Source of the DNA: an uncultured virus (IMG/VR IMGVR_UViG_3300023081_000006)
Lineage: Duplodnaviria > Heunggongvirae > Uroviricota > Caudoviricetes
Virus record (IMG/VR): IMGVR_UViG_3300023081_000006
Reading direction: 5' to 3' (one strand)
Length of the DNA stretch: 60,533 nt
Shown in pieces: positions 31,529 to 37,066 of this stretch. The notes beneath the pieces are model-generated. The model was not told where the DNA came from. It saw nothing but the letters and a program-made list of their open reading frames with translations, and did no database searches. Made by a program: the position numbers and the translations under genes. The first letter of the stretch is position 1. Every line of letters begins with the position of its first letter.

Positions 31529-31604
31529 TGGTAGGACTGAGTGGAGTTGAACCACTGACCTTCCGCTTATAAGACGGATGCTCTAACCATTGAGCTACAG
31601 TCCC
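31529..31604 (-). tRNA. tRNA-Ile(UAU)
   Basis: GGGACTGTAGCTCAATGGTTAGAGCA-TCCGT-CT-TAT-AA-GCGGA-AGGTCAGTGGTTCAACTCCACTCAGTCCTACCA; full cloverleaf with encoded CCA. Confidence 0.92.
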
Positions 31605-31609
31605 ATATT

Positions 31610-31696
31610 TGGTGCCTCGGGCCGGACTCGAACCGGCACACCCAAACGGGCGAGAGATTTTAAGTCTCTTGTGTCTACCAATTTCACCACCGAGGC
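31610..31696 (-). tRNA. tRNA-Leu(UAA)
   Basis: GCCTCGG...AGAGA-CT-TAA-AA-TCTCT, long variable arm, GTTCGAGTC, CCA. Confidence 0.95.
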
Positions 31697-31697
31697 G

Positions 31698-31774
31698 TGG
31701 CGCGCCCTGGAGGATTCGAACCTCCGACCTACGGTTTAGAAGACCGTTGCTCTAATCCACTGAGCTAAGAGCGC
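31698..31774 (-). tRNA. tRNA-Arg(UCU)
   Basis: GCGCTCT...ACGGT-CT-TCT-AA-ACCGT...GGTTCGAATCC...CCA. Confidence 0.95.
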
Positions 31775-34098: not shown

Positions 34099-34395
34099 TT
34101 AAATAGGTAGTTGATTTTCCTTTTCCTTTAGCATGTTAAGGCTTTGAGCTTCTGCTTTAACCTTTTCTTTTAACGAACTGCTAAGAAGTTTATTTACACT
34201 TTCAACTTCAATCTCATTACGTTCACAATAGTCAAGTATCACATCCATACAAGTAAGTCCTGTTTGGTATGATTTCTTTTCAATGAATTGTGAAAATTCT
34301 GTAGATGTTTTGAATTCCTTTGTAATAAGAAAAACATCTGATATTCTTGTTTCTTTCAAATCTTCTTTTTTATTGTTCACGATTAGCGTGATCAA
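34099..34395 (-). CDS. gp33: Late transcription coactivator gp33
   Basis: FS..IE, MD.ILDYCERNEIEVESV.KLLS.SLKEK...EA..LN.L. Confidence 0.9.
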   Translation of the reverse strand: MITLIVNNKKEDLKETRISDVFLITKEFKTSTEFSQFIEKKSYQTGLTCMDVILDYCERNEIEVESVNKLLSSSLKEKVKAEAQSLNMLKEKENQLPI

Positions 34396-35837: not shown

Positions 35838-36056
35838 TTACTTAGACGAAACAAATCTATTAATATCATTTGCCATAACTTCAATTTCTTTGAAGCTAGG
35901 AAAAGCAGGCATAGATGGAAAATCTGGACTAAGCCCCGAATCTACATCTGCATGATATTTGGATATTAGATTATCTCGTTCCATGTGATACTGTTCAGTT
36001 AGCAAAGATTTTGCTTCAGTAAACATAGAAAATCTAAGTTCGAATGGATTTGACAT
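35838..36056 (-). CDS. Small conserved-type phage protein (start reassigned to ATG 36056)
   Basis: MSNPFELRFSMFTEAK...FPSFKEIEVMANDINRFVSSK; strong CAGGAGG SD preceded by a CA-rich tract. Confidence 0.8.
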   Translation of the reverse strand: MSNPFELRFSMFTEAKSLLTEQYHMERDNLISKYHADVDSGLSPDFPSMPAFPSFKEIEVMANDINRFVSSK

Positions 36057-36089
36057 AATAACCTCCTGTGTGTATGTGTGTGTCAAATT

Positions 36090-36403
36090 GGGCCCGTTTG
36101 ATAACAAGGTGGAACCCTTACCCCGTCTAGCTTAAGCAGCCAGAGAAAATACCTCATCGTTGGCATTTATTGTGTTTCATTACGGTTACGGTCGCTTGCA
36201 CACCGATCCTCCACTTTCCTACTGAGCACTTGTCGAACCTGTTCACCCCCATCAGATATGCACTTACCACAATTTGTTCCAATTAAGTGATACTTTTCTG
36301 TATCACCCTCTCTTACATTGTTACAAATACACAAATACATATCTGGTGGAGGTGGTGGGAATCGCACCCACGTCCAAATACCTTTTCAGTCCGTTTCATC
36401 AGA
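36090..36403 (-). ncRNA. ssrA: Circularly permuted two-piece tmRNA: acceptor piece ~36403-36344, intervening segment 36343-36251, coding piece from 36250
   Basis: GGAC-GTGGG-TGCGATT-CCCAC-CACCTCC-ACCA precedes GGGGGTG-AACAGGTTCGAC; acceptor stem with G3.U70; ATAAAT-GCC resume context; tag ANDEVFSLAA* at 36164-36132; pseudoknot after the tag; outer ends approximate. Confidence 0.92.
36167..36340 (-). CDS. Candidate minimal Bfd-like [2Fe-2S] protein overlapping the tmRNA
   Basis: MYLCICNNV...IGTNCGKCI matches the Bfd pattern MYxCxCNx...GxxCGKC; no SD, so translation is unproven. Confidence 0.5.
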   Translation of the reverse strand: MYLCICNNVREGDTEKYHLIGTNCGKCISDGGEQVRQVLSRKVEDRCASDRNRNETQ

Positions 36404-37066
36404 TTAGTTATTTATAACTTCAGTCTCATAACTGTCTCTAGCGTTGAGCAATTTTTCTACATAGTTATCACGTTTTTCAACATGCACTATTGGCTCTTCG
36501 CCTTCAACAGCCATAAGAATGACTGATTGAGAAACAGGTATTCCTGTTCTTTCCTCAAACATTATAGCATAGGCAGAGCATTGAATAAAATAATTTTCGC
36601 ACTGACTTCTGCTTTTTGGTTTCATTGACGTTTTAAAGTCAATTACAGATAGTTTACCATTATATTCTGCAATACAGTCAACCTGTCCTGCAAGACGTAA
36701 ATGATCACTATACATTTTTGCCTCGATTGCTCTGATATTATCAATATCATCTAACAAAGGGCGAAACTTACGAAACATTTCCTTATCAATATAATTGAGG
36801 TTTGTATCCTCAGTCAATTCATTATTAAGAATGTCTTCGCAAAGTTTGTGAATCTTTGTACCACGAGTTGTGGCACGTCTACTAATTTTATCTGCTTCTT
36901 TTTCGCCTATTCTTTTACGCCAAGCTTGAATGTATGGCTTAGACTTATGAGATAAAATAGTTGTAACAGATGGATATTGAGTCCCGGACGGAGTAACATA
37001 TCTCCGCCCGTTCTCAGTATTAACCTGTTTAAGTTGTGGTATCTCTACCAAATTATGTGTAAACAA
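36404..37066 (-). CDS. PD-(D/E)XK Cas4-like exonuclease
   Basis: YPSVTTIL, RGT.IH, AG.VDCIAEY.GKLSVIDFKTS, YFIQ..AYA.M.EE.TG. Confidence 0.88.
   Translation of the reverse strand: MFTHNLVEIPQLKQVNTENGRRYVTPSGTQYPSVTTILSHKSKPYIQAWRKRIGEKEADKISRRATTRGTKIHKLCEDILNNELTEDTNLNYIDKEMFRKFRPLLDDIDNIRAIEAKMYSDHLRLAGQVDCIAEYNGKLSVIDFKTSMKPKSRSQCENYFIQCSAYAIMFEERTGIPVSQSVILMAVEGEEPIVHVEKRDNYVEKLLNARDSYETEVINN
36409..36416 (-). promoter_or_regulatory. T4-type late promoter driving the tmRNA
   Basis: TATAAATA immediately upstream of the acceptor piece. Confidence 0.75.

Follow-up and report, generated by a model that had tools for sequence, protein, structure and literature searches.

The locus

The window (the whole stretch of DNA analysed, 60,533 nucleotides) makes up the second half of a linear virus record of 122.5 kb, which is about 75% complete and belongs to a T4-like phage that encodes gp23, gp20, gp43, gp44/62, UvsX/W/Y, gp32, gp33 and gp59. 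The nearest isolate by gp32 is Melnitz (58.6%), and blastn with the locus against isolate phages returned nothing longer than pieces of 35 to 37 bases. The features, given in the direction of reading, are as follows.

36404..37066, minus strand: PD-(D/E)XK exonuclease gene, upstream of the tmRNA (context)
36409..36416, minus strand: TATAAATA, T4-type late promoter motif, overlapping the end of the exonuclease gene
36344..36403, minus strand: acceptor piece of the two-piece tmRNA (ARAGORN, Rfam and parsing; 5' end inferred)
36251..36343, minus strand: intervening sequence (spacer) of 93 nt between CCA and G1, with a closing stem of about 10 bp
36167..36340, minus strand: mini-Bfd ORF, 57 aa, codons 1-30 being the spacer (36340-36251); a conserved ORF overlooked when the sequence was first read
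36087..36250, minus strand: coding piece of the tmRNA from G1 (36250, predicted RNase P site; Rfam and parsing; 3' boundary approximate)
36132..36164, minus strand: tag frame ANDEVFSLAA* (ARAGORN)
34099..34395, minus strand: gp33 late-transcription co-activator, downstream of the tmRNA (PF16805, E 4e-20)

A sequence-only reading had proposed that this phage encodes a two-piece tmRNA and had named ARAGORN and Rfam searches with Infernal as the check. Both match: ARAGORN reports a permuted tmRNA (tmRNA*) on the minus strand with the tag ANDEVFSLAA*, and the Rfam model tmRNA_permuted (RF04321) aligns to 36405-36132 with 110 bits (cut-off 47, E 1.4e-20), which bears the proposal out. The best clan match of the window is alpha_tmRNA (RF01849), at 70.2 bits against a cut-off of 50. 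The 3' acceptor segment with its CCA lies upstream of the 5' segment, and the acceptor piece was parsed into an inter-piece strand (36389-36376), a T-arm (36371-36355, loop UGCGAUU), the acceptor 3' strand (36354-36348), a discriminator A (36347) and an encoded CCA (36346-36344). The 7-bp acceptor stem consists of G1-C72, G2-C71, G3·U70, G4-C69, G5-C68, U6-A67 and G7-C66, the inter-piece helix pairs 36231-36222 with 36389-36376, and the tag frame ends in an LAA-type hydrophobic degron and a stop. The precursor is predicted to fold into the tmRNA architecture with z = -3.0, none of 100 shuffles being equally stable. All the minus-strand features that the sequence-only reading had listed are present, and its G3·U70 pair, CCA, T-arm, inter-piece pairing and tag each find their place in the parsed structure; its remark that the window holds no smpB extends to the whole record (about 75% complete), where no SmpB was found. 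Bacterial permuted tmRNAs (RF04321; RF01849 for alpha, RF01850 for beta) share the order of acceptor piece, spacer and coding piece, the G3·U70 pair, the CCA and a tag ending in LAA.

The locus was also sought among RNA runs. At least half of its words are contained in 15 of the 23 runs listed, all of them salt-marsh metatranscriptomes of 2018 and perhaps of one campaign. Eight of the 23 were compared; one 4.6-kb contig covers the whole stretch of the locus without differences, and other contigs bridge the spacer junctions, though ends, strand and level are beyond what contigs can show, and DNA was possibly present. Short deep contigs that cover the T-arm and end at 36346-36349 (X18, X19, X20) were considered as evidence of the CCA end and set aside, graph branching among many tmRNAs being an equally good explanation.

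Two further observations concern the surroundings of the tmRNA gene. An ORF of 72 aa with a strong Shine-Dalgarno (SD) sequence directly follows it (35838-36056, minus strand) and has no Pfam or PHROG match. Three tRNA genes lie at 31529-31774 (minus strand), with the anticodons TAT (Ile), TAA (Leu) and TCT (Arg); the UAU anticodon is rare in bacteria.

A late promoter motif at conserved spacing

T4 late promoters lie a few bases before the transcript start and depend on a machinery of gp55, gp33 and gp45. By its consensus, TATAAATA is a putative T4-type late promoter. The octamer occurs 31 times in the 122.5-kb AT-rich record against 25.6 expected, that is, with no excess over chance. In 23 of 72 distinct related genes it stands 65-69 nt before the CCA end, and it was never found at other distances within the 110 nt examined; these 72 permuted genes were parsed out of 152 loci, the loci of two loose scans being excluded except L287. 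Late transcription is plausible because this spacing is conserved. As to the machinery, gp33 is clear in the record, gp45 is weak (E 5e-5), and neither Pfam nor PHROGs named a gp55. The T4 late promoter claimed in the sequence-only reading is thus plausible by its conserved spacing and by gp33 downstream, while the octamer alone is at chance level.

A 28-codon ORF in the acceptor piece (approximately 36313-36399, minus strand) begins some 4 nt downstream of the predicted late start; it uses another frame and overlaps the mini-Bfd AUG. It was rejected as a general mechanism, being kept in the window's lineage and absent or different elsewhere.

Two-piece tmRNAs in phages and the question of the host

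The sequence-only reading had started from the premise that known phage tmRNAs are one-piece, a picture that a list of ten phage ssrA genes from 2014 (PMC4131195) fits. Two-piece forms are, however, in print: those of the Methylophilales (OM43) phage Melnitz and of related aquatic myophages were published in 2022 (Buchholz et al., PMC9004378), and the same paper gives 133 phage tmRNA structures, 53 of them two-piece and 50 of these aquatic. The tmRNA of the window is a further case of this published form. Its T-arm pattern was found in at least 120 viral loci, with about 140 estimated.

As in the window, the permuted ssrA of Melnitz lies between a PD-(D/E)XK nuclease region and gp33-gp59-gp32, nuclease and tmRNA being two small genes apart in Melnitz, and TATAAATA is spaced at 69 nt, compared with 65 nt in the window. 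Three features set Melnitz apart from the window: its T-loop is of the alpha type, its tag is a different one, and a glutamine riboswitch follows downstream. No glutamine riboswitch was found in the window at Rfam's cut-off. An early promoter was postulated for the Melnitz tmRNA (PMC9004378), whereas a late promoter is plausible here. The Melnitz spacer measures 142 nt and holds a different ORF of 54 codons, whereas that of the window measures 93 nt and holds mini-Bfd.

The host had been suggested to be an alphaproteobacterium, and the UGCGAUU T-loop to be reminiscent of alphaproteobacterial ones. The comparison supports neither suggestion. The T-loop is GGCRGUA in 26 of 26 parsed alphaproteobacterial tmRNAs and UGCGAUU in none (26 of 32 loci were parsable, a sample biased to high-scoring genes). 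For the close relatives L048 and L080 it is the beta model that fits best, at 94.9 and 98.4 bits (cut-off 84), although for the window it is the alpha model. Melnitz infects OM43 yet carries an alpha-like tmRNA, so that tmRNA type does not name the host.

An ORF in the spacer is selected as a protein

The AUG of mini-Bfd lies 3 nt after the CCA, and exactly 30 codons fill the spacer from there to G1. They encode the cysteine pattern CxC-x17-CxxC. The frame, uninterrupted by a stop in the spacer, continues across the coding piece to end 2 nt short of the resume codon; the tail past codon 30 is unconserved.

Copies nested in this way in tmRNA spacers were compared codon by codon, with pN/pS as counting estimates, not codon-model fits. 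Across 12 distinct nested copies, pN/pS was 0.19 in the mini-Bfd frame; among the other five frames it was 1.1-1.6 in four and 0.29 in the remaining one, a reverse frame with the same third positions. None of the 12 copies has a stop in the mini-Bfd frame and all 12 have stops in both other sense frames, while variable columns at codon positions 1, 2 and 3 number 13, 7 and 27 of 30. The value in 16 free-standing copies was equal (0.19). Along a minimum spanning tree, a 10-copy clade of nested copies only (support 93/95) has 60 changes that are synonymous and 40 that are not (pN/pS 0.15); for the five copies of the window's lineage the counts are 14 and 8 (pN/pS 0.13, binomial P 3e-6). The signal persists when the stem codons are left out (pN/pS 0.15-0.19). 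The spacer ORF is under purifying selection as a protein.

All 11 nested genes keep the frame open for 23-41 codons beyond G1, as compared with at least 20 codons in 6 of 59 other tmRNAs, with two truncated rows removed. The count is not one of independent cases, because the 11 nested genes represent only three to four lineages, and the other frames are often open too (5/11 and 3/11). The open frame is suggestive of read-through; a Fisher P for it was set aside, the rows being related.

The closing stem and the start of translation

A closing stem of about 10 bp is predicted to pair the AUG region with the 3' end of the spacer. In the nested copies 95.8% of 120 cells are paired; one pair has changes on both sides, and 19 of 500 shuffles were as high on that measure. 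The spacer loop of the nested copies yielded no consensus structure. The AUG has a pairing probability of 0.63-1.0 in 13 nested copies, compared with 0-0.6 in 57 others, and by these predictions the closing stem is specific to nested copies. From the aligned copies, codons and closing stem are selected together in one spacer.

Predictions have the AUG paired in all three forms, namely the precursor, RNA cut after the CCA and the excised spacer, so that initiation would be hampered. An SD-like motif was found in none of the 13 nested copies. Among the 57 non-nested copies only 16 have one, the start abuts a stop codon in 36 (a rough count, with the upstream frame unchecked) and in 8 an octamer resembling the late promoter precedes the start by 5-8 nt; SD-free starts are therefore normal in the family.

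Mini-Bfd is a shortened relative of Bfd

When a profile of 59 family members was compared with the PDB, Bfd chains of P. aeruginosa came first (E 4-9e-5), and only Bfd chains passed E 0.001. C4, C6, G21, C24 and C27 are invariant (the four cysteines in 59 of 59), and M1, Y2, I5 and G25 are at least 90% conserved. Bfd (PF04324; PDB 4E6K, 6E6Q-S) shares with mini-Bfd the pattern CxC...G-x-x-C-G-K-C, M1, Y2 and a hydrophobic residue 5. It has 31 residues between the cysteine pairs, 14 of which are missing from mini-Bfd in the profile alignment, whereas mini-Bfd has 17 and a tail dictated by the tmRNA sequence. By this comparison mini-Bfd is homologous to Bfd; we assign it as Bfd-derived, not as Bfd, because of the spacing of 17 residues and a Pfam score below cut-off. 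The window's peptide reaches 14.4 bits against the Pfam Bfd model (PF04324, cut-off 26) and 17.2 bits against a zinc-ribbon model (cut-off 27), and weak Pfam matches in the family are to zinc-ribbon models in 12 of 59 members and to Fer2_BFD in 9 of 59. One of the 59 has a PHROG match. AlphaFold modelling of the 57-aa product with the 59-row alignment gave a mean pLDDT of 53.5 and a pTM of 0.21, too low to inform on the fold. One of 301 alphaproteobacterial genomes was matched, by a full-length Bfd with an N-terminus almost identical to mini-Bfd.

We lean towards mini-Bfd being a [2Fe-2S] or other metal-binding module. Bfd anchors on bacterioferritin via M1, Y2 and L5 (PMC11303784), and these positions (M1, Y2 and a hydrophobic residue 5) are kept in mini-Bfd. 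We propose only tentatively that mini-Bfd docks on host bacterioferritin and so releases stored iron for the Fe-S enzymes of the phage. The record encodes four radical-SAM-type proteins, an A-type Fe-S carrier and a 2OG-Fe(II) oxygenase, which supply a motive for iron access and nothing beyond.

The record holds other genes of note. A large block (37538-60329 of the window, and G000 L443-L446) contains radical-SAM-type, carbamoyltransferase, epimerase, methyltransferase and sulfotransferase genes. Elsewhere in the record there are genes for GTP cyclohydrolase I, PTPS, a ClpP-like protease, peptide deformylase, a peroxiredoxin and the A-type Fe-S carrier.

Distribution of mini-Bfd and contents of other spacers

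Peptide searches recovered 59 metagenome loci, 69 viral loci and 40 protein representatives, a few of the last being unrelated long proteins. The 128 family loci, which include redundant contigs, comprise 26 nested copies (13 distinct cores), 12 directly upstream of a permuted tmRNA (6 distinct cores) and 90 free-standing (51). A mini-Bfd spacer was found in 10 of the 121 rows of the first tmRNA survey, and the ORF is dispensable for the tmRNA, since most related tmRNAs have no spacer ORF. The nested copies go with several different tags, have their AUG 3-7 nt after the CCA and keep G1 in frame; that of L467 has a longer core of 31 residues in the same register. Eight further proteins, judged by protein sequence alone, continue into an apparent tmRNA 5' segment. 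tblastn of the 30-aa core against isolate phages gave no match. Loose scans for a CCA followed by Bfd codons, which covered 28 of 64 parts of the viral collection and 8 of 64 parts of the genome collection, found one nested copy among the 120 viral loci listed and none among the 120 bacterial loci listed, a weak indication of absence from bacteria.

A single origin of the nested copies was not rejected in a monophyly test on the 93-column gene tree (p-AU 0.24), and the best tree needs three changes. Nested mini-Bfd of one clade occurs in two separate tmRNA clades, which points to exchange between conserved flanks. Unrelated ORFs occupy the spacer in L035, L052 and Melnitz. The spacer thus appears, from these comparisons, to behave as a slot whose cargo can be exchanged, carried by a strong late transcript. 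Alphaproteobacterial spacers differ, being 5-55 nt long with an ORF of 20 codons in 0 of 26 (a sample biased to high-scoring genes). The 2025 paper on a tmRNA database (PMC11915505) names a tRNA gene and a repeat inside permuted spacers.

Several of these spacers deserve description. That of Melnitz (approximately L201:3579-3720, MZ577097.1), 142 nt long, contains an ORF of 54 codons; this ORF has an SD-like motif, continues past G1, is unannotated in the record and faintly resembles the 29-codon spacer ORF of L035. The latter (L035:706-826, minus strand) has its own SD and stop and is followed by a glutamine riboswitch, while L052:77-252 (minus strand) holds a 54-codon ORF with a stop three codons after G1. 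In L003, L008, L012, L004, L024 and L077 the spacers are structured, non-coding and 61-84 nt long, with a recurring three-way junction and varying hairpins; no Rfam match was found for them among the scanned loci, and they are candidates for small RNAs released on processing.

Other arrangements of the family were also seen. In L180-L186, L487-L490 and L493 a mini-Bfd with its own stop lies directly upstream of the acceptor piece of a permuted tmRNA or overlaps it, and in L186 genes that by eye resemble heme oxygenase and bilin reductase follow the tmRNA. In L122/L459:1230 onward the core shares its frame with the beginning of a UvsW-like helicase (527 aa), and in L463 and L480 with that of 161-aa proteins. 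L149:1-260 is a nested copy whose tmRNA 5' strand starts with U instead of G and whose acceptor 3' strand is off consensus; its acceptor stem is possibly unusual or decaying.

A precursor that may serve as tmRNA and as messenger

The reading that we consider probable is that of an intact two-piece tmRNA gene with a protein-selected mini-Bfd in its spacer, the transcript being both rescue RNA and messenger. The late transcript would be cut by host enzymes to give an alanine-accepting ribosome-rescue RNA. For permuted tmRNAs, maturation by RNase P at G1 and by a 3' nuclease at the CCA has been proposed (PMC3985003), and by analogy we hold with high confidence that the phage RNA would be cut by RNase P at G1, trimmed at its 3' end to the CCA and would use host AlaRS and host SmpB in tagging with ANDEVFSLAA. 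Molecules uncut at G1 would be translated into mini-Bfd, a predicted iron-sulfur cluster binder, and translation of the spacer ORF in place is, in our judgement, quite likely. The buried AUG is the main difficulty for it. Because there is no SD sequence, the likeliest start would be near-leaderless initiation on RNA cut after the CCA, with a leader of 3 nt; termination would occur in the coding piece, and the ribosome would have to open the closing stem.

Other readings were weighed against this one. If a mini-bfd gene had fallen into the spacer as a relic, to be kept now only as an untranslated RNA hairpin, the predicted burial of the AUG, the absent SD and a closing stem formed by the first and last codons would all be expected; yet the excess of synonymous changes in codons 4-25, outside the stem, in both the nested-only clade and the window's lineage, the loop without consensus structure and the 12 copies without stops or frameshifts make such a relic very improbable. 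Another reading is a protein that is made and is not a bacterioferritin partner, and to this we give somewhat less than an even chance: it could be a zinc or iron thiol peptide, a decoy for the host's Bfd site, or a donor of electrons or clusters to Fe-S enzymes of the phage. The scores below the Pfam Bfd cut-off, with zinc-ribbon the commoner weak match (12/59 vs 9/59), the deletion of 14 residues between the cysteine pairs, the in-frame fusion of some relatives to a helicase or to other proteins and the several Fe-S proteins of the record agree with such a role, whereas the conservation of at least 90% of the anchor residues M1, Y2 and hydrophobic residue 5, and a PDB search in which Bfd chains alone fell below E 0.001, argue for the partner. 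As to the tmRNA itself, the sequence-only reading had it counter tRNA- or mRNA-cleaving defences in an alphaproteobacterial host, which we regard as rather improbable. The tmRNA is intact and has a likely late promoter, the alpha model is the window's best clan match and three phage tRNA genes lie nearby; but the T-loop is not of the alpha type (0/26), the beta model is the better fit for close relatives, Melnitz illustrates that the host cannot be read from the tmRNA type, and a general relief of ribosome stalling during degradation of host RNA explains the tmRNA equally well.

A further possibility joins the two functions in a feedback circuit, which is conceivable because the excised spacer would be a non-stop message. 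The cut at G1 would turn the spacer into such a message, mini-Bfd made from cut RNA would be tagged and destroyed through the tmRNA, and ribosomes on uncut RNA would open the stems and delay maturation; mini-Bfd would become more abundant only if tmRNA maturation or activity fell behind, as with arfA of E. coli. None of the 12 copies has a stop inside the spacer, G1 is in frame in every parsed nested gene and the frame is open to roughly the resume codon; one and the same stem closes the spacer and buries the AUG, the spacer ORFs of Melnitz and L052 likewise have no internal stop, the family lies directly upstream of tmRNA genes in 12 loci, and arfA itself is a precedent (PMC10107115). A conserved UGAU at the spacer end, however, supplies a stop that is one base off the frame, 90 of the 128 family loci lack a neighbouring tmRNA, the spacer ORF of L035 has its own SD and stop, and the common register could be explained by one or a few insertions, so that we consider the circuit unlikely.

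Known systems resemble parts of what is proposed for mini-Bfd. Bacterial 23S rRNA contains ORF-bearing intervening sequences (S23p), closed by a stem and excised from the precursor of a structural RNA; they involve another RNA and another nuclease, whereas mini-Bfd is a core of 30 codons without its own stop. In arfA of E. coli, a nuclease cut inside the ORF gives a stop-less message that is repressed by tmRNA (PMC10107115). In the phage, it is the tmRNA precursor that would contain the message, and maturation of the tmRNA that would make the cut, a circuit that we infer.

Meaning of the spacer ORF

By titles and abstract openings, no publication on ORFs in tmRNA spacers or on a phage mini-Bfd was found, and Table S1 of the Melnitz paper and database files may bear on this. 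Annotation of a tmRNA masks the genes in its spacer, and the Melnitz record lists none. The locus also brings to light very small phage proteins derived from Bfd, a family overlooked by Pfam and PHROGs, and the 30-residue core would be easy to synthesise and test.

In the favoured reading, the precursor of a stable RNA would double as a messenger and be under two selections at once, in a segment usually treated as waste, and mini-Bfd could be a phage route to host iron stores. The missing stop codon predicts a testable coupling of tmRNA maturation to protein output. The fullest form of the idea, to which we give a low probability, is that aquatic T4-like phages have made the tmRNA spacer into a messenger for undescribed minimal ferredoxins (with a core of 27-32 residues) and into a self-regulating switch. 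If this is true, the tmRNA would destroy its own passenger and couple the access of the phage to host iron stores with the state of ribosome rescue.
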